Positions 3,228 through 35,445 of a DNA stretch of 64,000 nucleotides are shown here, one piece after another. Each line of letters starts with the position of its first letter. Position 1 is the stretch's first letter. The position numbers and the translations under genes are program-made. Source of the stretch: a virus (taxonomy: Duplodnaviria > Heunggongvirae > Uroviricota > Caudoviricetes); the IMG/VR virus record IMGVR_UViG_2529292922_000010, one strand, 5' to 3'. The notes under the pieces were generated by a model, which saw only the letters and a list, made by a program, of their open reading frames with translations, searched no databases and had not been told where the DNA came from.

Positions 3228-3800
3228 ATGCCTAATCGCATTCCTCTCGATCCTGTATTGCCCAAAAATTTTGACTGCACTCCTAACGAGAAACGCTCTA
3301 AAGCTCAGCTGGACGCCTGGTGGGACCATCCCTATGGGGTTACAGAACATGACGGGAAAATTGTTGTTTATTGTCTGAATGGTGGCGCGTGGGACCGTCC
3401 ATCCGTGCTGGGTTTGGCAAATAACTATGATGAAGCCTGTGAACTTGCCGAAAGACAGCAGGCTAGATGGGTAAAAACGCGGTCACAGCCGATATTTATG
3501 TACTCACAGGAACCTCCATTTGTGCTGGCGAGAATGCCGCAGCGACCGGATCATCAACAAGAAATTGTTGCTGAATTTTCCTCAATGGATGAGATGAATC
3601 TCTTCTCATTAAAGCAGGAAGAAAGGGATCGCGTCGAAGTGTCTCCAACTCTCGACCACAACCGGATGAACCTGGCCCAACTCGCCTGGTACAGCAAAGA
3701 ATTGGAGATGTCTATTGCCCGGCTTGAAAACGAAAAAGCCGCTATCCAAGCCCAGCATGAAGCTGTCATTGCCAGGATACGAGAAGTTCAAAACGGTTAA
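3228..3800 (+). CDS. Hypothetical protein, 190 aa, divergent from humD
   Basis: AAGGAA RBS; C-terminal coiled-coil-like segment; function unknown. Confidence 0.5.
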   Translation: MPNRIPLDPVLPKNFDCTPNEKRSKAQLDAWWDHPYGVTEHDGKIVVYCLNGGAWDRPSVLGLANNYDEACELAERQQARWVKTRSQPIFMYSQEPPFVLARMPQRPDHQQEIVAEFSSMDEMNLFSLKQEERDRVEVSPTLDHNRMNLAQLAWYSKELEMSIARLENEKAAIQAQHEAVIARIREVQNG

Positions 3801-4372: not shown

Positions 4373-4633
4373 TCAGAGATCAGCTTTATGCAGAATTTTA
4401 TCCACCAGCGATGTGATTTTTTCTGCCAGGTCATCATTACTTACCCAATCCTGGCGGGCAGCCAGAACGGGCGACAAGGCTAATATTAACTCTCGTCGTA
4501 ATGATACGTTCCTTGCTACAGGCGGAATACGTGGTGCTGGTGGTGGTTTAAGCCCCTCGCTCCCTTGTATTTCTGGAGTATTCGGCTGATAGCCATTAGT
4601 TATTTTCGGCGGTATTGGACGAGGACGAAACAT
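4373..4633 (-). CDS. Pro-rich small protein, 86 aa
   Basis: ATG at 4633 with AGGAGG RBS 7 nt upstream; the longer track ORF (to 4753) lacks an RBS. Confidence 0.45.
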   Translation of the reverse strand: MFRPRPIPPKITNGYQPNTPEIQGSEGLKPPPAPRIPPVARNVSLRRELILALSPVLAARQDWVSNDDLAEKITSLVDKILHKADL

Positions 4634-4637
4634 CGCG

Positions 4638-4934
4638 CTACCTCCTACACTCAGGGCAGGTGTTCCCTTCCGCAAAGTAGGGGAAACTGCTATCAAGTTC
4701 ATCACACCATCTGCGATGCTCGTAGCACCAAAAAGCCTCCCACGGTAAACCAAAAGACTTCATCCACCGGGACACTCGATCTGGTATATCTGCTGGTGGC
4801 AGTTCTTCTGGCAATAATTTGCCTGATAATTCCCTTTCCGCCCGCGCCAGCATTCCTTTTAGACTCGCATTCTCTTTTTCAAGAATCTCTATGCGCGCCT
4901 GTAACTCAGCTTTCGTTGGCATGGCCCGCCTCAT
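4638..4934 (-). CDS. Hypothetical coiled-coil protein with C-terminal Cys cluster
   Basis: ELQARIEILEKENASLKGMLARAERE segment plus C...C...CPEC; start ambiguous (4922, 4934 or 5003). Confidence 0.4.
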   Translation of the reverse strand: MRRAMPTKAELQARIEILEKENASLKGMLARAERELSGKLLPEELPPADIPDRVSRWMKSFGLPWEAFWCYEHRRWCDELDSSFPYFAEGNTCPECRR

Positions 4935-5556
4935 GCTTATCAGCCACCAGCGGCAATAAAGCCCTGGCCATCTTATGAACCAATAGTGCATCAATAATGC
5001 CAAGCGTATGCCCCGGCTTAATGTTTAATGCCGCCTCAAGGTGACACCTTTCCAGGCCACTTTTCTCGGCTTGTTTATGATGATCTGGCGTAATAACGTC
5101 GCCCAAAACACGGCTAATTTTTTCTCGTAATTGCTGGGTGCCAGCACACTTGATCGCTGTATCGTGGATGCGGTTAACCAGTTCGCGATAAACATGCGGC
5201 TTAATTCGGATACGTTCACCGGTGACGCCCTTTCCTGGCGCTGGCACCGAACTATCCGGAATATCCGGATAGTTGCCAGCCTCGTAAGCTACCCGCAGCC
5301 AGTGCATGAATGTTTCAGTGGACACACAACCGCAGTCCACATCGATTTTCGCGCGTTGCTGTTCCAGCCACTGCTCAAAATTCAATCTACACGTATTACT
5401 TTCATGTTGCTCTTTTTGTCTCAAGGCCAGCATCTGCTGGGCTATTTCCAATACTTCATCTGCCGTATATCCAGCACCGTGACCATACATTTCGATACGG
5501 GAAATAATCTCTGATATACGCTCTTCAGTGATTCTGGTCATTTCTTTTTGCGCCAT
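4906..5556 (-). CDS. Hypothetical protein, 216 aa
   Basis: Long ORF; short overlaps with both neighbours indicate operon; no recognisable motif. Confidence 0.5.
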   Translation of the reverse strand: MAQKEMTRITEERISEIISRIEMYGHGAGYTADEVLEIAQQMLALRQKEQHESNTCRLNFEQWLEQQRAKIDVDCGCVSTETFMHWLRVAYEAGNYPDIPDSSVPAPGKGVTGERIRIKPHVYRELVNRIHDTAIKCAGTQQLREKISRVLGDVITPDHHKQAEKSGLERCHLEAALNIKPGHTLGIIDALLVHKMARALLPLVADKHEAGHANES

Positions 5557-27133: not shown

Positions 27134-29547
27134 ACACCTAAAACGTCATGAGCTACACCTCGAGTATCCCCCTTACAAGACACAGAACGTCTGGCAAAAA
27201 GAGGTTCCACTCTGAAGCCACTGTCATGATAAAGCTCTCTGATATTTGGCGCGCCACTGTTAGTAATTAGAACCTTTGCACCTCGGCGATGAGCATCCGT
27301 CAACAGAGACACCAGGCGTTTTTGCTCTTCAAACTTAAAGTCATGACCGGAATAGTTCGTGAATCCCTCTGTATTTGGGAGCGGTTCATACGGCGGATCG
27401 CAAAAGATGACATCTCCTTCTCCGGCAGCTTCAATCACCGCAGCAAAATCACCACATACAAACTCAGAACGCCCTTCCGCACCAAGGAAGGCTCCCATCT
27501 CCTGCAATGGGAAATACGGAGTTTTATACTTCCCATAACCGACATTGAACTCACCGGCCTGGTTGTAACGCGTCAATCCGTTAAAACAATGTCGGTTCAG
27601 GAACAAAAACGCCGCTGCGCGATGTAAATCATCATAGACTTGTTTGTTAAACGCATTCCGTACTGCCAGGTATCCTTCCTGTGTGTTGTAGTCCTGGAAA
27701 AACCGATGTGCCAGTGTGATAAGTGAATGCGCCTCGCGTTGCAGAGTCTTGTAAAAGTTAATCAGGTCAGCATTCACATCATTTAGCAGATTTTCCTGGT
27801 ATCCGGCATTCATGAAGACAGCTCCGCCACCGACGAAAGGTTCAATCAGGCGCTTCCCTTCTGGCAAATAGCGAAAGATTTGTTCCAGAACACCAAATTT
27901 TCCACCAGCCCATTTGAATATGGACCGTTCGAATTCTGCCGCTGGTTTAACTTTTCGCTCTTTTGTTTCATTCCCTTCATTCTGCCGACATGCAGCCTTG
28001 GTAATCCGATCGCCAATCCAGCGCATTACTGGTATCGCCATACTATTGCCGATCGCTTTGTAACGCGGTCCGTCAGCTGCAAGCATCGCGGCCTCTTCTT
28101 CGCTTAAATCTGGATAGTGATTGCGAAGATATGCCAGTTCATCTGAATTAACTTTTTTACGCTTTTCCGTCGGGATCAACGTATGCACATCAGGAAAACC
28201 TTGCAGCCTTTCACATTCGATAGGGGTAAGACGGCGAACACTCATCATATGAGGTAAGTAACCATTATCACCTAATTCGCCTTTTTCAATACTTTTCTGC
28301 CCCCCAAAAGATAACGCAACGGCGTCAGCTGTAGCGCGGGAATCAAGAGTAAAACTTATCTCTTTTTGCCACCCTTTACCCTGCGGTCCAGCATCATCTT
28401 TTCGCCCAATTTGTGCATGTTGTAGCGAATACGCAACAGCTGGTGGGCATCCCGCGTTTTGATTGCTATTAGCAGAGTTACCAGCTCGTAAAGTTGGGGA
28501 AATCTCAACACCCGCATCCTGCCCATAATTTTTGCTTGTAAACGCAATAGTTTTCTTGCAAGAAAACACAATTGGAGCTTCATGATTACAAGTAAGAGTA
28601 GGTGATGTCCCATCATTTTTTATTTCTGCCCCCCCTTGCCCATGCGCCATGCAATACACAAGTCCGCTGCCTCGCTGCGCAAAAATCTCCTGGTTACTTG
28701 CACCGATCCCACCAGTATTGTGTGACTGGTTAAGTGTCGGGTGAGGATTTACAGGGTTATCCCAATGGCTCCCGCTTTTAATGCCATTTCCAACATTTCC
28801 GGCAACTTCCTTCCCCTCGCCTCTGCTCGGCGCAATATTCCGGCGCACGCCTTCGAACTCAAAAAGTACCGTTGCGGGATCGAGGTCTGTTCGAGCACTT
28901 GCGACAACAAACACGCGTCGGCGTCGTTGTGCCACTCCGAAGTATTGGGCATCAAGGATTCTCCAGGCCACCTTTCGCTGCGGTCCATAAATACAACCAC
29001 ACTGCGGCCACTTTGGAACATGGCAACCGGTTTTGCCATCCCACCGCCAGAACGCGTTGCTTTTTCCTGATTCAGGTCGATCACCTGGTTCAAATGGCAC
29101 ATCTTCTCCAGCCAATCCGGCAAGGAAACATCCGAAGGCGTTATCTGCCGATGACAAGACTCCTGGGACATTTTCCCAGACGATAACGGCTGGTTTGAGA
29201 AATGACTCAGCCCGTTTGTCGTCAATTGCATTTGCAAGCTCCACATACTTTAAAGTTAGCGCGCCACGCTCATCATCAAGCCCACCACCTAATCCCGCAA
29301 TACTGAATGCCTGACAAGGTGTTCCCCCGACGAGCACATCAGGGGATTCGATTTCCCCAGCCAAGACTTTTTGGGCAAGTTTTGTCATGTCGCCAAGGTT
29401 GGCGACATGGGGCCAGCGGTGCGCAAGAACGGCAGATGGAAAAGGCTCGATTTCAGCAAACCACGCCGGACGCATACCCAACGGTTCCCAAGCAATACTC
29501 GCGGCTTCAATTCCACTGCAAACAGATCCATAGCACAGCTCTTTCAC
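27124..29547 (-). CDS. dmt: Bifunctional DNA methyltransferase (C5-cytosine + Dam-like N6-adenine)
   Basis: 807 aa; N-terminal GTPCQAFS and ENV motifs; C-terminal FVGGGAVF and DPPY motifs. Confidence 0.85.
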
Positions 29548-30449
29548 TGTTTAGCCTCTCCACCAAGGGCATTTACCAGAGCATCAACCAGGCACGAAAT
29601 TTCACTGGTCAACAGGAAGAAATCTGCGTCCAGTCGCTGCGCAACATCTTCACTATCAATATCAGAGTTCTGCTCAAGCAATTCATCCGCAAATTTGACG
29701 CTGGTAAGGCTGAAGTTATGGTCCAGTGTAAATTTAATGCGGTTCTGCCAGTCGAGTGCCAACTTAGTGACGAGCTTGCCAGCTTCCAGGTGTGTGGAAA
29801 TTTCATCGCTTCCCAAATCCTGCTTTTTCACCCGGGCAATACCGCCATCCTCAAGCACTGCCTTAAGTTCTGCCGCATCCCCCATTTGAAATCCCTGTGG
29901 AGCACTACCATCACGTACCCAGTCGGTCAGCGTTAATTCAATGGGATTTTCAACACTCAGGGGAACAACAGGAAGAGAACCCAGAGACTTACGCATAAGC
30001 GCGAGCATATCCTCTGCCTGCCGCGCGCTGGCATTGATATAGATACGTTTAGTTGAACCGTCGTAGATCGCCTGGATAACAGAAAACTTTGAAAAAGCCC
30101 GTGGCAGAAGAGAATGCAGAACTTCGTCTTTCAGGGAGTCCTTCTCTGTTTTCTTCAGTTTACGCGCTTGTTCTTGCTCAAGTTTTTCAATTTTTTCTTG
30201 AATAGCTCGCTGGATAACCGGCGGGGGAAGAATTTTTGTTTCGCGCTTTGCTTCAACAAGGATAAAACCATTTCCATGCATAGCGATAACTTCGGAATTA
30301 TCACCAAATGGAGATACAAAACCGAACTTGGCCATATCCTGACTACCGCATGGCGTGAAAAGGATCATTTTCTTTTTATCTTCTAAGTCGGTCAGATCCG
30401 CCTCACGAGAAAGTTTATAAATAGTAATGTTTTTCCAGTGCTTAAACAT
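29544..30449 (-). CDS. hrdC: RdgC-like recombination-associated protein
   Basis: ATG 30449 ([13 protein letters not shown]...); [13 protein letters not shown] and overall pattern of E. coli RdgC; track ORF extends further upstream. Confidence 0.8.
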
Positions 30450-30798
30450 GTTGTAACCCTTGAATATCAACCACAGAAAGCTCGTCTTTGTAGAAAAAGG
30501 CCAGGTTGTGGCACCCCCTCGTTTGAGCGTATGAGCTGGGACCAATTTCGTTCTTCCAGACAAATGGCTTCAAATCCGTACGGCGAAGCATAAAAACGCG
30601 ATTTGTTCCGCTCTGATTCCCAATGAGGCAAAAGCCTTCTTTCACCTTGATAGCCTGCAAGTTGTCGAGTTCACCGCTGGTTACACGGCTATCGAACTCT
30701 TTGCGGCTTATTAGCTCCATCTGCATCTGACGACTCCAAACAAATGCCCATTGAAGGGCGATGGCTGAATGGTACCGAAAATACGACATAAAAAACAA
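30442..30798 (-). CDS. uhr: Hypothetical protein upstream of hrdC, 118 aa
   Basis: Stop overlaps hrdC start; operator overlaps its start codon; no RBS. Confidence 0.45.
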
Positions 30799-30814
30799 TA
30801 TTTATTAGAGCAAT
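30798..30814 (-). promoter_or_regulatory. C1-repressor operator-like site
   Basis: Minus strand ATTGCTCTAATAAATAT (16/17). Confidence 0.55.
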
Positions 30815-30895
30815 TTTGCAATAGCTGAACCCCATGTAGACCACAAACAACCTGAGCTAAAATAACGAAAATCAGAGCAAATAATTGGTGATGAC

Positions 30896-31180
30896 GTGGC
30901 AAGTATTGCAACAAAAGACAGCATTTGTTCGGGGCACGGAGGATTCCCATCCAGGCCTCCTGTAGAGAGTGAACCACTACTTAAAGTCAACGGAGTCGAA
31001 GTGTTAGTTGATGGTAAGCAATATGCACAGCATACCGATGGAAACAGTACGCACGGTGGGCAAGCTATATCAACCAGGGCATGGTTTACCGTCAATGGTA
31101 AAGGGATCGTATGCGTTGGTGACCCTGTTTCATGCGGATCTACCGTAGCGTCCGGAGACGGCCTGGTTCAGGTAAGTTAG
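30896..31180 (+). CDS. PAAR-like small Gly/Cys-rich protein, 94 aa
   Basis: GTG start; HGG...VNGKGI...VGDPVSCG pattern resembles PAAR spike-tip proteins; tentative. Confidence 0.4.
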   Translation: MASIATKDSICSGHGGFPSRPPVESEPLLKVNGVEVLVDGKQYAQHTDGNSTHGGQAISTRAWFTVNGKGIVCVGDPVSCGSTVASGDGLVQVS

Positions 31181-31188
31181 GAGATATC

Positions 31189-31977
31189 ATGCTGGAAAAA
31201 GACTACCAGTTATCCGCATATAAAAAATTGGCCGCCGCCGGTGGGATGAAAACACCTGGTGCCATAACATCGGCACGAAACAGTGCTAACACAGCAAAAC
31301 TGCTTGCAGAAGAATTGACCGGATTAATTCTGGATACAATTGTCTATCCCGACACTATTACCAGCTATGTTTCAACGATCAGAACAACCACAACCGGCTT
31401 AACGAACATTGGAGAACTGGCAACTAAGCACGCGGACCTGTTGGCTGGTTATGCAGATCTGTCAATGCTGCTTCAACTCGATATTGGTTGGGATGTTTAC
31501 TGCCGTGCTAATGAGCGAGAAGTATCAGAACTGCCGATCTCTATTGCCATTGGTGATGTGACTATTACTAAATCGCTTGAGGACGCTGTAAACGCGCTTA
31601 ATACATCAAGTTTAGTCGCTGCTATGGGGGAGATTAACCAGACCCTTAACACTGGCTCAGGAAGCTCGTCAGGCTCTGGTTCAGGCGGCGGCACTGCCAC
31701 TCCCCCACCAGCACTAACAGAAGAGCAAATTGAATCTCTGAAAGTAGCAACTGAACAGTTTGGGGTTGTATTCAACCAGACAACAGCGCCCACAACTGCG
31801 TTACAACAGCAGTATGAACGAGCGAATGAAAGCGCCAATGTAGCCATAACTGCTTATAACCATGCTATCGGTACTGCGCTTGCGGAAGCATCAGCAAATA
31901 AGGCCAGCACAGCCAGCGCAGTTGCTGCTTTGGTTCCTGATTCTGTTCTTGATGAATTAAACAAAGCGGCACAGTAA
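31189..31977 (+). CDS. Hypothetical protein with Ser/Gly-rich linker, 262 aa
   Basis: ATG 31189 with AGGAG RBS. Confidence 0.5.
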   Translation: MLEKDYQLSAYKKLAAAGGMKTPGAITSARNSANTAKLLAEELTGLILDTIVYPDTITSYVSTIRTTTTGLTNIGELATKHADLLAGYADLSMLLQLDIGWDVYCRANEREVSELPISIAIGDVTITKSLEDAVNALNTSSLVAAMGEINQTLNTGSGSSSGSGSGGGTATPPPALTEEQIESLKVATEQFGVVFNQTTAPTTALQQQYERANESANVAITAYNHAIGTALAEASANKASTASAVAALVPDSVLDELNKAAQ

Positions 31978-32016
31978 CAAAGGACTTCATTGATAATTTT
32001 TCTTCAGGAGGAAGAC

Positions 32017-32439
32017 ATGTCATTCTTTTCTACGTTAAAAACAGCTTTGTCTTTGAAGGAGAAACTTGCTGCTACTGGTGTTCTTGTTCTGATTTGCGCA
32101 CTTGTTGGTGCTGGGTTTGCATGGGAACGTCATCAGCTAAAGCAAGCCATCGAGAAAATTGGCAGTCTTGATCAGGCTGTTAAGGAACGTGATAAGTCAA
32201 TAATGGATCTTAACCAGACCATTGAGACGATGAACAAAGCAGAGCAACATTTTCACAGCCAGGAAGTGAAAAATGAATCAGAACAAGCCAAATATGCTGA
32301 CAGGCAAATGGAACGAAAAGCTGAAGTTCAGAAACAACTGGTTGCGGCGGGTAATGTTCGCCAGCGCATTCCTGCTGACACTCAGCGGTTGCTCCGGGAG
32401 TCGATCAGCGAATTTAACGCCGACGCCGACAAAGGTTAA
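32017..32439 (+). CDS. i-spanin (Rz)-like protein, 141 aa
   Basis: AGGAGG RBS; N-terminal TM helix then coiled coil. Confidence 0.45.
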   Translation: MSFFSTLKTALSLKEKLAATGVLVLICALVGAGFAWERHQLKQAIEKIGSLDQAVKERDKSIMDLNQTIETMNKAEQHFHSQEVKNESEQAKYADRQMERKAEVQKQLVAAGNVRQRIPADTQRLLRESISEFNADADKG

Positions 32440-32605
32440 CCACCCTGCCCCCAAAAGTGCATTTATGTGCAGAATGCCAGAGTTTAGCAGTGAATATTTC
32501 GATGATCTGCCAGCGTATATCCTCGATACAGAAACGATGCTGATGGGGATTAACAGGAAGAATCGCAACGTTAATGATTACAACCGCGCTATCAGCGGTA
32601 ACTAA
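32294..32605 (+). CDS. o-spanin (Rz1)-like lipoprotein, overlapping frame
   Basis: Signal peptide with lipobox LTLSGC; starts inside and ends beyond the Rz-like gene. Confidence 0.4.
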   Translation: MLTGKWNEKLKFRNNWLRRVMFASAFLLTLSGCSGSRSANLTPTPTKVNHPAPKSAFMCRMPEFSSEYFDDLPAYILDTETMLMGINRKNRNVNDYNRAISGN

Positions 32606-32616
32606 AAGGGATTTTT

Positions 32617-33009
32617 ATGTCTGATAAAGTAACAGTAAAGCAAACTATCAACAAAGCGACTTCAATCTACAAAATTGAGCACATCACTGTTGGCAAGCCA
32701 GGATCTGAACAATACCGTCATGCTTTCGAGCTTGCCGCTCAGCTTGGTTTAAAACACCCGGATTGCATTGAGCATGTATTTCCGACCTATGCTGATGAGC
32801 AATGTACTCATGTTCTTACCGAAGAGGATTTTTTCAGCACTGAAGAACGAGAAGGCGTTGATCGCTGCATTGGTGTGATTTGCTCTTCAGTGAGTTATGA
32901 GTTATTCCCTAATGTCCATGAAAATGGTGGTATTGGATACCAATTCCTGTACGAAGGCGATGAGCTTAAATGTTATGAACATGGTCTTCTTATCGAAAGC
33001 GTAGAATAA
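32617..33009 (+). CDS. Hypothetical protein, 130 aa
   Basis: ORF with RBS. Confidence 0.5.
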   Translation: MSDKVTVKQTINKATSIYKIEHITVGKPGSEQYRHAFELAAQLGLKHPDCIEHVFPTYADEQCTHVLTEEDFFSTEEREGVDRCIGVICSSVSYELFPNVHENGGIGYQFLYEGDELKCYEHGLLIESVE

Positions 33010-33022
33010 TACCCTTCCTTCC

Positions 33023-33047
33023 AACCGGCTATGTTGGCCGGTTTATT
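33023..33047 (+). terminator. Rho-independent terminator-like hairpin
   Basis: AACCGGC-loop-GCCGGTT then TTTATT. Confidence 0.5.
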
Positions 33048-33051
33048 CAAC

Positions 33052-33060
33052 TTATCCACA
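33052..33060 (+). promoter_or_regulatory. DnaA box at plasmid origin
   Basis: TTATCCACA, exact consensus. Confidence 0.65.
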
Positions 33061-33065
33061 GCATA

Positions 33066-33159
33066 GATCCAATAAACAGATCCCAAAGAGAACCTAGGAA
33101 GATCCAAAGAAGATCCCGGATCGCTGTAAGCCGCGCCGTTCATGGCCTGAAACGGGATC
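33066..33159. promoter_or_regulatory. Cluster of five GATC (Dam) sites at origin
   Basis: GATC at 33066, 33079, 33101, 33112, 33156, mostly in AGATCC context. Confidence 0.6.
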
Positions 33160-33163
33160 AACA

Positions 33164-33268
33164 TTGACTATACGCGATTTTATGTTGACTGTGTGCGATT
33201 TTATGTTGACTGCACGCGATTTATTGTTGACTATACGCGACAGAAACGTTGACTGTACGCGATTTTAG
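33164..33268 (+). promoter_or_regulatory. Five direct 21-bp iterons upstream of repA (incC-like)
   Basis: TTGACTRYRYGCGA at 33164, 33185, 33206, 33227, 33249. Confidence 0.75.
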
Positions 33269-33343
33269 AGCCTGAATATTCACAGCTGTTGATAACAGTC
33301 ATCTAAATTAACGCCAGGCCGCGCCACACATGGAGAAACCACG

Positions 33344-34228
33344 ATGCCGGAAGAAAGTAAAGGCTTCCTTAGCGTTGAAGAAGTTGCAGGAAATACAGGA
33401 GAAATCCACAGCCTGAAGCCCAATAACAACAGCACTATACAACCTATCGCTTTGTTGCGCTTAGGTGTGTTTGTGCCAACCTTAAAATCTACCAATGTGG
33501 CACTACGTCGCGGATCGTCAGTTACTACAAACACAACGAACGCAACCGAAGAACTATCAAGCCTTAAAATTGTTGAGCAGGAAGGCTATGAGGGAATTGA
33601 AATTCATGGCCCACGCCTGGATATGGATACTGATTTTAAGGTGTGGGTGGGCATAACCTCCGCGTTGTTTGACTACGCACCTGATGATGACGGCATAATC
33701 ACCCTGCCATTCTCCGAGTTTGCCGATCGATGCGGCTATCCACGTAAGCGCCTTTCAAAGGCGTTCCGTAAAAGTATTGATGACTCTCTGACACGCATTC
33801 AGCAGACAGTTGTCAAATTCCGCTTCCCGGCGGCAAAAGGTCATCTCAATAACATTAACGTCAACTTGTTGGCATATAGCAGCCTGAATACCGAGCTTGA
33901 TGTTATCGAGATCCAGCCGCAGAAACAGCTATCTGAACTTTACTATGTTGACTATAAGCGAATCCTGAAGCTGAAGATGCTGGATAAGCTCGGGCGCAAA
34001 GAGACGGCCAAGGTACTGTATACATTCTTTGAGGCTCTACCCGCCAACCCGGCACCTGTCAGCATTGAGCGCCTTAGAGCAAGGCTTAATCTCAAATCAT
34101 CCGTTAGCGTGCAAAATAGCGTTATCAGAAAAGCCATGAAAGATTTGGAAGCTATTGAATATCTTAAATTTTCAGAGATAAAAAACGGCAGGAAAATCGG
34201 CTTCCAGATCCATAAGCGCAATCCATAA
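33344..34228 (+). CDS. repA: Iteron-binding replication initiator
   Basis: 294 aa; flanked by direct iterons upstream and bidirectional iterons downstream; GGAGAAA RBS. Confidence 0.8.
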   Translation: MPEESKGFLSVEEVAGNTGEIHSLKPNNNSTIQPIALLRLGVFVPTLKSTNVALRRGSSVTTNTTNATEELSSLKIVEQEGYEGIEIHGPRLDMDTDFKVWVGITSALFDYAPDDDGIITLPFSEFADRCGYPRKRLSKAFRKSIDDSLTRIQQTVVKFRFPAAKGHLNNINVNLLAYSSLNTELDVIEIQPQKQLSELYYVDYKRILKLKMLDKLGRKETAKVLYTFFEALPANPAPVSIERLRARLNLKSSVSVQNSVIRKAMKDLEAIEYLKFSEIKNGRKIGFQIHKRNP

Positions 34229-34230
34229 TA

Positions 34231-34495
34231 TTGACTATATGCGATAGCGAGAAGTTGACTATAGGCGACATTCGTTGACGCTGGTGGATTTTTGCTGGCG
34301 TCAATATTCTGCAAGTCGCTATTGAGATGGCTTTTAGGGTCATTTCATCGCGTATAGTCAACGTTTCTCCCGACAATATCTTACATAGTCGATCTTTGGT
34401 GGAGTTAAATCGACTACAGTCAACTTTTGACTGTAGTCACATCGCGCATAGTCAACTATTCACATTAACTTTCGCGTATAGTCAACATTTGCGCG
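34231..34495. promoter_or_regulatory. Downstream iteron array, both orientations (incA-like copy control)
   Basis: At least 7 copies of TTGACTRTAGKCGA at 34231, 34255, 34348(rev), 34410(rev), 34427, 34443(rev), 34482(rev). Confidence 0.7.
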
Positions 34496-34520
34496 GTTCT
34501 CATCAAGCAGTGGTATTGAT

Positions 34521-35330
34521 ATGCAAGAAGAGAAACAACACTACCTCTACGTTCTGGTGCCGGAGAATGGAGATACTTTTAAAATCGGCATTTCATGTGG
34601 TCCATTGGCACGGTTTAAAGGGCTACAAGTGAGTCCCGATTTTGCGCTTTCACGGGTCTATCGTGGTACGCGTTTGGCAATAGTTAATCTTGAGCGGGCT
34701 TTACACGCAACCTTTTTCCCCTGGAATGCGCCGTGGGAGAAAAGCGCTGGTGGCGGGCATACTGAATGGTTTACACGAGAGTGTCTTGATAAGGTTTTGG
34801 CTCATATCGAATATCTAAATGATATGTGGGGAGGGATTCTCGAGCGCATTAAGTCGAATGATTTACTTCAGCGTCCAGTAGATGCTGCCCGCTCTTTCGA
34901 AAAAGAGCTGGATGTTACTTCTATCGTGACTTTCAAAGATGACGCAGGAATGAGGGACGTGGCTTATGTCTCCATATCTGGCTATGAACCGGACGCGATC
35001 CGCGCTCAATGTGAATTGCTGAAAGCAATGTTTATGCTTCGGACTAAATATTCCTGGGAGACAAGGCGGGTGTGCTTCCCTATGGAAGAGTTAACCGCCA
35101 CCATTGATTCCCAGCTTTACCACGATAATCCAGAGAAGTTTTTTAGCCTTTTAGCCGGTAATGGGCTTAACTGTGTGTCCGGGCTGGGGCGAAGTAGAAT
35201 CCAACATGCCTCGCTCTTCGGTCCCTTCTTTTACGATCGACACGGGTACTTTGAGGCTGAACTTCCGGCGCTTACGCGTGCCATAGATACTATCGATTTC
35301 GAACGATTATTCGCTGCTCTTAGCAAATAA
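34521..35330 (+). CDS. GIY-YIG-like (T5orf172-type) domain protein, 269 aa
   Basis: N-terminal YLYVLVPENGDTFKIGIS...EWF; own terminator; sits between iteron array and parA promoter. Confidence 0.5.
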   Translation: MQEEKQHYLYVLVPENGDTFKIGISCGPLARFKGLQVSPDFALSRVYRGTRLAIVNLERALHATFFPWNAPWEKSAGGGHTEWFTRECLDKVLAHIEYLNDMWGGILERIKSNDLLQRPVDAARSFEKELDVTSIVTFKDDAGMRDVAYVSISGYEPDAIRAQCELLKAMFMLRTKYSWETRRVCFPMEELTATIDSQLYHDNPEKFFSLLAGNGLNCVSGLGRSRIQHASLFGPFFYDRHGYFEAELPALTRAIDTIDFERLFAALSK

Positions 35331-35337
35331 CACTGAT

Positions 35338-35358
35338 GCCCCTGAACGGGGCTTTTTT
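35338..35358 (+). terminator. Rho-independent terminator
   Basis: GCCCC-TGAAC-GGGGC followed by T6. Confidence 0.7.
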
Positions 35359-35445
35359 GTGCCCTCCTTGTAACTCTCAATCGTGCAAAATGAACCAAAC
35401 ATGCAGAGAATGCTATGTACAAGCATCTGTGCATACATTATTATT

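Follow-up and report, generated by a model that had tools for sequence, protein, structure and literature searches.

The upfC-upfB-ppfA-mlp-upfA cluster of a P1-like phage-plasmid: a predicted overlapped spanin pair beside the genes of a spike tip and its tripod

The assignment of the phage P1 genes ppfA and mlp as spanins is due to Summer (2007), as that work is cited by Bednarek (2022, PMC9025707). SpaninDB (the supplement of Kongari 2018) lists their products as an overlapped inner-membrane spanin (i-spanin, class OIS; gp064) and an overlapped outer-membrane spanin (o-spanin, class OOS; gp063), giving for the latter a precursor of 110 residues, a signal of 39 and a mature protein of 71, with a single periplasmic Cys in the pair, located in the o-spanin. 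Two neighbouring gene products of P1 have been located in the virion by cryo-electron microscopy (cryo-EM, January 2026; PMC12810830): UpfC sits as a monomer at the tip of the gp5 trimer and is structurally like gp5.4 of T4, and UpfB, as three trimers, forms a novel tripod attached to the UpfC tip. A later paper (PMC13611949) repeats these roles and names UpfC a PAAR protein analogous to gp5.4; the idea of UpfC and UpfB as a membrane-piercing tip is a speculation of the authors of the cryo-EM study. The present work deals with the corresponding genes, upfC-upfB-ppfA-mlp-upfA, in a stretch of 64,000 nucleotides (hereafter, the window) from the viral record IMGVR_UViG_2529292922_000010 of IMG/VR, and compares them with P1, with LysB/LysC of P2, with Rz/Rz1 of lambda and with gp5.4 of T4.

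From its sequence, the window can be identified as a P1-like phage-plasmid, and the region as the already-described five-gene cluster, real but ordinary. In all likelihood, the cluster combines two unrelated envelope jobs, a spike tip with its tripod for entry and a predicted two-part spanin for exit. At the DNA level, positions 30600-33100 are 95-98.6% identical to P1, P7, SJ46 and RCS47; the blastn matches comprise 23 phage records, with query coverage of 80% or more in 18 and identity of 90% or more in 21, JL22 being among them and vB_EcoM-Ro157c2YLVW the closest (98.6%). The order on the P1 RefSeq map is dmt, hrdC and uhr (all on the minus strand), the operator Odmt, the five genes (plus strand), the oriR iterons and repA, and the position of the cluster between hrdC/uhr and oriR is thus the standard one. 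The same arrangement is found in the Cronobacter phage JK004 and in Salmonella and Klebsiella aerogenes contigs, where PpfA is only about 60% identical, and a survey of 77 P1-like phage-plasmids places mlp, ppfA and upfC in the set of the 21 best-conserved genes. The original prediction, made from the letters of the window, had correctly placed the genes between hrdC and the origin and had called this placement unexpected, which it is not, being kept down to about 60% protein identity. The accompanying remark that the genes lie apart from the late operons is correct as a description, and reflects a known peculiarity of P1 rather than a discovery. Indeed, both the spanin pair and the spike tip are already present in the literature and in GenBank and RefSeq notes, and UpfC also in the PDB. 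The coordinates are collected in Table 1.

Table 1. Features of the cluster and its surroundings (positions in the window)
Feature	Position	Strand	Description
gene 5	20895..21527	+	trimeric central spike capped by UpfC; mapped via NC_050153.1 (L011)
hrdC	29544-30449	-	RdgC family, 5.6e-98; uhr lies between hrdC and upfC
C1 operator Odmt (formerly Op68)	30798..30814	-	in the divergent uhr/upfC spacer; part of the leftward Pdmt promoter
-10-like hexamer	30858..30863	+	TAAAAT here, TAnnAT in relatives; 33 nucleotides upstream of the upfC start
upfC	30896..31180	+	tip of the central tail spike, monomeric and PAAR-like (resembling T4 gp5.4)
upfB	31189..31977	+	alpha-helical tripod protein; PHROG_1559, 2e-138; role from PMC12810830 and PMC13611949
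ppfA	32017..32439	+	140 residues; predicted i-spanin, type II inner-membrane protein
mlp	32273..32605	+	+1 frame of ppfA; 110-residue predicted outer-membrane lipoprotein precursor, predicted o-spanin
ppfA/mlp overlap	32273..32439	+	167 nucleotides; first ~81 evolve as ppfA only, last ~83 under dual constraint
upfA	32617..33009	+	fifth gene of the cluster; PHROG_1453, 7e-61
terminator-like stem-loop	33021..33047	+	T-rich tail; just after upfA; consensus scan only
five origin iterons	33164..33265	+	TTGACTrTrCGCGA, 21-22 nucleotides apart; precede repA, so that the replicon adjoins the cluster
repA	33344-34228		RepA, 294 residues; 'RepFIB replication protein A' in MH422554

PpfA is 100% identical to its P1 counterpart and Mlp 98.2% (two differences, N7S and A32V), and the values obtained here for the two proteins agree item for item with the P1 row of SpaninDB. 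The features by which Summer 2007 and Kongari 2018 recognise two-component spanins are all found in the two sequences, which supports ppfA/mlp as a predicted overlapped i-/o-spanin pair and agrees with what had been read from the window alone. PpfA has a single N-terminal transmembrane domain, at residues 17-35 (the best 19-residue hydrophobic window, with a mean Kyte-Doolittle value of 2.35), preceded by a net positive segment (three K/R against one D/E in residues 1-16), a distribution which predicts a cytoplasmic N-terminus. The predicted periplasmic part, of 104 residues, is 36% charged and lacks Cys; eight of 13 heptad a/d positions in residues 37-80 are hydrophobic, and an AlphaFold2 model built from a 17-sequence alignment shows helices at 13-110 and 120-137 separated by a break at 111-119. 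The helical or coiled-coil domain with a break expected of an i-spanin is therefore present with moderate confidence, and the transmembrane helix followed by coiled coil that had been proposed for this gene is borne out.

In Mlp, a 39-residue signal ends in the lipobox LSG|C40 (within FLLTLSG|C; Cys codon at 32390-32392), with Ser and not Asp at position +2, and the mature protein of 71 residues contains six Pro (8.5%) and one further Cys, C66. The pair thus carries one periplasmic Cys, none in PpfA and one in Mlp, which is invariant in the relatives; at least one such Cys, in either partner, is found in 507 of 528 known spanin systems. The Cys and Pro content, which had been suggested as a check, is accordingly that of a spanin. 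Furthermore, in seven lineages mlp begins within ppfA in a different frame and extends past its end, as defines the overlapped class. These lineages, on which the coding comparisons below also rest, are the window, P1 and five with a PpfA 59-64% identical (JK004, L005, L006, L008 and L009).

As regards families, ppfA/mlp is, on the matches obtained, a distant relative of P2 lysB/lysC, without being an equivalog member of those families, and stands outside the sequence families of lambda Rz/Rz1. The NCBIfam matches are concordant and both below threshold: PpfA to LysB (TIGR03495, 2.3e-3, 18.2 bits for a cut-off of 92.75) and Mlp to LysC (NF038368, 0.033, 14.3 bits for a cut-off of 27). PpfA matches PHROG_89, 'Rz-like spanin', at 5e-25, while Mlp matches two PHROG families, also of Rz-like spanins, namely PHROG_30284 at 9e-73, which may itself include P1 Mlp, and PHROG_456 at 3e-5. 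Neither protein has an Rz or Rz1 family among its Pfam matches at E<=1, and searches of PDB sequences with PpfA and Mlp returned nothing meaningful.

The comparison with P2 is the closest one after P1. In both phages the two genes overlap, with lysC, like mlp, starting inside its partner in another frame, and LysB (141 residues) is of the same size as PpfA. LysC and Mlp can be aligned pairwise with an E value of 5e-8 and 37% identity over 68 residues, including signal, lipobox and the PTP and C-MP motifs, a match which is evidence of predicted kinship independent of the PHROG families. The differences are that Mlp has about 23 extra N-terminal residues, that PpfA and LysB are linked only through the sub-threshold profile match, and that lysB/lysC directly follow holin Y, endolysin K and lysA, whereas ppfA/mlp have no lysis gene nearby. 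The likeness with lambda Rz/Rz1 is one of predicted design: a helical type II inner-membrane protein is paired with a small outer-membrane lipoprotein that contains Pro and is encoded in the +1 frame, and there is a periplasmic Cys for a homodimer disulfide. However, the lambda genes are embedded instead of overlapped and belong to a lysis cassette, Rz has two periplasmic Cys where PpfA has none, and the penta-proline run of Rz1 has no equivalent in Mlp.

By analogy with these systems, a mechanism for the exit function can be proposed. PpfA would be anchored in the inner membrane by its one N-terminal helix, with its long helix extending across the periplasm; Mlp would, after export and lipidation at Cys40, be directed to the outer membrane, since Ser and not Asp occupies position +2. 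Both proteins would bind through their C-terminal parts, Mlp forming a dimer through its single conserved free Cys (C66), and the resulting bridges across the periplasm would be restrained by the peptidoglycan mesh. Once the wall is degraded by the action of the holin LydA and the signal-anchor-release (SAR) endolysin Lyz, encoded elsewhere, the complexes may collapse, the inner and outer membranes fuse and the virions be released. This exit mechanism is drawn wholly from analogy with lambda Rz/Rz1 and from the sequence relatedness with P2 LysB/LysC.

Several observations weigh against the spanin assignment. PpfA gives no match to the Pfam Rz family (Phage_lysis) at E<=1 and its pairwise comparison with P2 LysB is not significant (E 58), PHROG_89 may itself include P1 PpfA, and the confidence of the AlphaFold2 model is moderate (mean pLDDT, the predicted local distance difference test, of 67), which makes it an indication and not a structure. 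The Mlp signal of 39 residues is unusually long, and the SpaninDB remark on the P1 o-spanin is 'Too long signal sequence', with no Prosite hit there. Moreover, no holin or endolysin gene is linked to the pair, in agreement with the absence of adjacent lysis genes already pointed out in the original prediction: the 17-33 kb block of P1 (lyz, lydD/lydE, lydABC) has no match of at least 300 nucleotides at E<=1e-20 anywhere in the window. The P1 genes themselves are known as spanin genes by predicted features only and lie in an unlinked operon (Bednarek 2022, PMC9025707). Finally, knock-down by CRISPR interference (CRISPRi) leaves P1 plaque-forming, with plating efficiencies of 1.3 and 1.2 for ppfA and of 0.24 and 0.19 for mlp, while lambda Rz scored as essential in the same study. 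As an observation on nomenclature, the Introduction of Bednarek 2022 (PMC9025707) gives the labels swapped (ppfA as o-spanin, mlp as i-spanin), the reverse of the sequences and of SpaninDB.

Some of these data would also suit a job for PpfA and Mlp other than disruption of the outer membrane at lysis, either as a regulator of lysis timing, the original reading of P2 lysB/lysC, or as a prophage lipoprotein exclusion or entry system working alongside UpfC and UpfB. Such a role would explain why plaques form despite the knock-down, and it is consistent with the neighbouring genes encoding entry proteins instead of lysis proteins, with the absence of a late promoter ahead of the cluster, and with the P1 GenBank entry, in which sigma-70 promoters are predicted for ppfA and a note reads 'possibly involved in regulation of lysis'. 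Against this alternative, unlinked spanin genes are known elsewhere, as for T4 pseT.3/pseT.2. The non-essentiality on plates is a weak argument, given that spanins are dispensable in shaken laboratory cultures (Bednarek 2022, PMC9025707). In addition, PpfA and Mlp show every sequence feature of a two-component spanin, and P2 LysC, to which Mlp is related, carries an Rz1-like annotation in RefSeq and elsewhere. A job of this other kind is therefore considered unlikely, and the predicted spanin pair is retained as the reading of ppfA/mlp.

The expression signals around the cluster bear on the same question. The Lpa late-promoter motif, derived from P1 LPpro, LPlyz and LPdar, has exact sites in the window at 18433, 37869, 37931 and 56975; between 18.5 and 37.8 kb no site was found within one mismatch, a further point against a lysis role under late control. 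Near the cluster only matches with two or three mismatches occur, and upstream of upfC only with three. The best of them, at 31556 inside upfB (two mismatches), was rejected, as the final T of its -10 box is missing and the encoded UpfB residues differ in JK004, the one relative compared by eye. A sigma-70 scan of the plus strand upstream of upfC likewise gave nothing convincing, while two sigma-70 promoters are predicted for ppfA in the P1 GenBank entry, inside and behind upfB. The C1 operator Odmt was mapped from the P1 annotation (L001, 3199-3215), and its core, ATTTATTAGA, is invariant in 7/7 lineages. Between it and upfC lies the -10-like hexamer, which is not annotated in P1 and in which T, A, A and T are invariant across the seven lineages; in their alignment it is accompanied by no recognisable -35 box or Lpa -22 box, and it is put forward as a candidate promoter element. 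The stem-loop after upfA is the probable end of the five-gene unit. Thus, upfC-upfB-ppfA-mlp-upfA are probably transcribed as one unit, possibly with internal promoters; transcription would begin at a weak promoter near the C1 operator and end at the hairpin ahead of oriR, with mlp translated from its own strong ribosome-binding site inside ppfA.

A more far-reaching proposal would make of these five genes an Lpa-independent unit beside the C1 operator which couples entry (UpfC/UpfB) with exit (PpfA/Mlp); alternative Mlp starts could, in addition, set the amount or timing of the o-spanin, and in its boldest form PpfA and Mlp would act outside terminal lysis. This is regarded as quite improbable. 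Knock-down of upfA, upfB and upfC by CRISPRi also leaves P1 plaque-forming.

The assignment of an o-spanin presupposes that mlp is a gene, and the evidence for this comes from the comparison of the seven lineages. The +1 frame, open from 32270 to 32605 in the window, is open for 110-123 codons in all of them, and every lineage compared retains a lipobox of the form L(S/N)(G/A)C as well as the second Cys, which lies in FMCRMPE. The distribution of substitutions relative to the window changes along the locus. In the part coding only for PpfA they peak on ppfA third positions (48/97, for example), and the first 81 nucleotides or so of the overlap behave in the same way, with 13-17 of 22-27 substitutions on ppfA third positions. 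The last 83 nucleotides or so, which encode the signal core, the lipobox and the first mature residues of Mlp together with the C-terminal helix of PpfA, show the highest identity (84-90%) and a flat substitution pattern, as expected where both frames are constrained. In the 163 nucleotides past the ppfA stop, mlp third positions carry 20-30 of the 35-50 substitutions, a bias with chi-square p values from 9e-3 to 2.5e-5 per pair, the pairs not being independent. An antisense open reading frame of 96 residues (32278-32568), sharing its third positions with mlp, was considered as an alternative source of this bias and is interrupted to 42-58 codons in the relatives. Moreover, in the distant relatives Mlp residues 57-110 are 76-83% identical, compared with 48-55% for PpfA residues 1-85.

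Because the frame and lipobox are conserved, substitutions past the ppfA stop fall mostly on mlp third positions and the antisense frame is broken, mlp is a conserved coding gene, and the outcome that would have spoken against the lipoprotein, namely a pattern showing only one coding frame, is excluded. That the mlp frame is open merely by chance inside and behind ppfA, with ppfA as the sole gene, is suggested by gene callers often skipping mlp (missing in RefSeq NC_050153 and in several Logan/ENA gene calls) and by the lack of protein-level constraint on Mlp residues 1-27, and is ruled out by the frame, the conserved lipobox and C66, the substitution patterns, the higher conservation of Mlp residues 57-110 and the homology with P2 LysC, which leave it practically no chance.

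The start of mlp deserves separate consideration. The out-of-frame overlap and the lipobox LTLSGC given in the original prediction stand, and its start at 32294 does not: that ATG is a Thr codon in four of the five distant lineages, while ATG 32273 is conserved (one codon later in relatives) and is preceded, within ppfA codons, by a strong and conserved Shine-Dalgarno sequence (AGGAAG in the window, AGGAGG in relatives). The P1 RefSeq record and SpaninDB begin mlp at this ATG too. Residues 1-27 (32273-32353) evolve in the ppfA frame alone and are only 26-33% identical in relatives. Met1 of P2 LysC aligns with Mlp residue 24, whose codon (32342-32344) is ATG in four relatives, TTG in the window and P1 and AGG in JK004. 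This alignment, together with the unconstrained extension, points to a functional signal peptide that would start near residue 24. One possibility is that the extension is tolerated as a basic n-region; another is the additional use of an internal start.

The annotation of these genes is uneven in public records. In NC_050153.1 (L011), the RefSeq record of the closest phage, both upfC and mlp are unannotated (20128-20589 and 21841-22017), and in MH422554.1 (L002) Rz1 appears at 3366-3506 as a 46-residue stump without signal peptide; mlp is likewise absent or shortened in several metagenome gene calls. In public sets there are, in addition, PpfA-Mlp fusion proteins of 193-195 residues (P0003, P0011, P0023, P0039, P0041 and P0042 were read). 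A programmed frameshift or a single-chain spanin was considered for them and rejected, the fusions arising by deletions of one nucleotide in homopolymers at four sites (A5 at 32268-32272, AAA, GGG and GG); sequencing errors or decay seem to be their origin.

As to the entry side of the cluster, UpfC (94 residues) is identical at 93/94 positions to the PDB chain 9vyi_A, 'UpfC' (E 1.7e-60). The PAAR-like character proposed from the window is confirmed by the matches to solved spike tips, about 1e-7 for T4 gp5.4 (5iv5, 4ku0), and to the PAAR protein 4jiv (4e-4), with residues H14, H46, H53 and C80 aligned in both, as well as by a match to PHROG_281 (2e-30). The profile search suggested as a check is marginal, Pfam PAAR_motif giving 8.5e-6 and 26.4 bits, just below the curated cut-off of 27. 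By these matches UpfC belongs with the PAAR-repeat, gp5.4-like spike tips. The description of the protein as rich in Gly and Cys holds for Gly (14 residues) and not for Cys, of which there are only three. That UpfC caps the gp5 spike here, with UpfB on top, is an assignment transferred from the P1 cryo-EM map at 99% UpfC identity, and the product of gene 5 in the window matches the PDB chain 9vzk_q, 'Gp5', over its full 210 residues (E 7.6e-137). Like gp5.4 and other PAAR-repeat proteins, UpfC is a cone-forming protein of about 95 residues on a trimeric beta-helical spike. It differs from gp5.4 in being only about 30% identical, in having a partner, the UpfB tripod, of a kind not described in T4, and in gene location, since the gp5.4 gene lies beside gene 5 in T4, whereas upfC is here 9.4 kb downstream of it.

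This distance, the category of PHROG_281 ('moron, auxiliary metabolic gene and host takeover') and a weak match to the NCBIfam T6SS_PAAR_dom profile (NF033420, 36.3 bits) would suit a type VI secretion-style PAAR adaptor or a moron cargo outside the virion, a reading with next to no probability, as the score is far under the 124-bit cut-off for type VI PAAR membership, among solved structures UpfC is closest to phage spike tips (T4 gp5.4, 9f4b), and the near-identical chain has been built into the P1 baseplate map (PMC12810830, PDB 9vyi), which rules it out.

UpfB, the tripod partner of UpfC, had been omitted from the original prediction. It aligns from residue 1 to 262 with positions 1-263 of the 263 of PHROG_1559, and its start at 31189 is supported by this alignment running from residue 1, while the start in the P1 GenBank entry is an earlier ATG, equivalent to 31132. 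A PDB sequence search with UpfB gave no match.

Beyond the predicted spanin pair and the spike proteins, the last gene of the cluster is the variable one. No Pfam or NCBIfam hit was found for the upfA product. The Salmonella relatives L005, L008 and L009 carry a Gp49-family gene (PF13876; ~4600-4966) instead, and no gene is called at this place in the Klebsiella aerogenes contigs L006 and L007 (4424-4977). In phage JL22, upfA is interrupted by an insertion of blaCTX-M-55 (PMC9603915).

In gene order, overlap, Shine-Dalgarno sequences and neighbours, the window agrees with P1. The replicon allele differs from that of P1, repA included, and the alignment to P1 breaks inside oriR. More iterons, in both orientations, are found downstream of repA (34226-34491). 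Between these repA-distal iterons and parA lies an extra open reading frame of 269 residues of the GIY-YIG / T5orf172 type (34521-35330, plus strand), which has no P1 counterpart (blastn gap between L001 5544-7045 and window 33137-35397) and is present in Ro157c2YLVW and in the contig L010. On the other side of the cluster, inside dmt (minus strand), about 580 nucleotides (~28240-28826) align to neither P1 nor Ro157c2YLVW, with flanks 96-99% identical; this segment looks mosaic or swapped, and is possibly a specificity region.

In conclusion, what is added here to the knowledge of this cluster is explicit dual-frame substitution evidence for mlp and the correction of its start, together with an unconstrained N-terminal extension of Mlp with a possible internal start, and the lack of a recognisable late promoter. 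These results matter little beyond correct annotation. Gene callers, nevertheless, still often miss overlapped o-spanin genes and small genes for spike tips, and a reading of the raw sequence can recover such missed genes, as with upfC and mlp.

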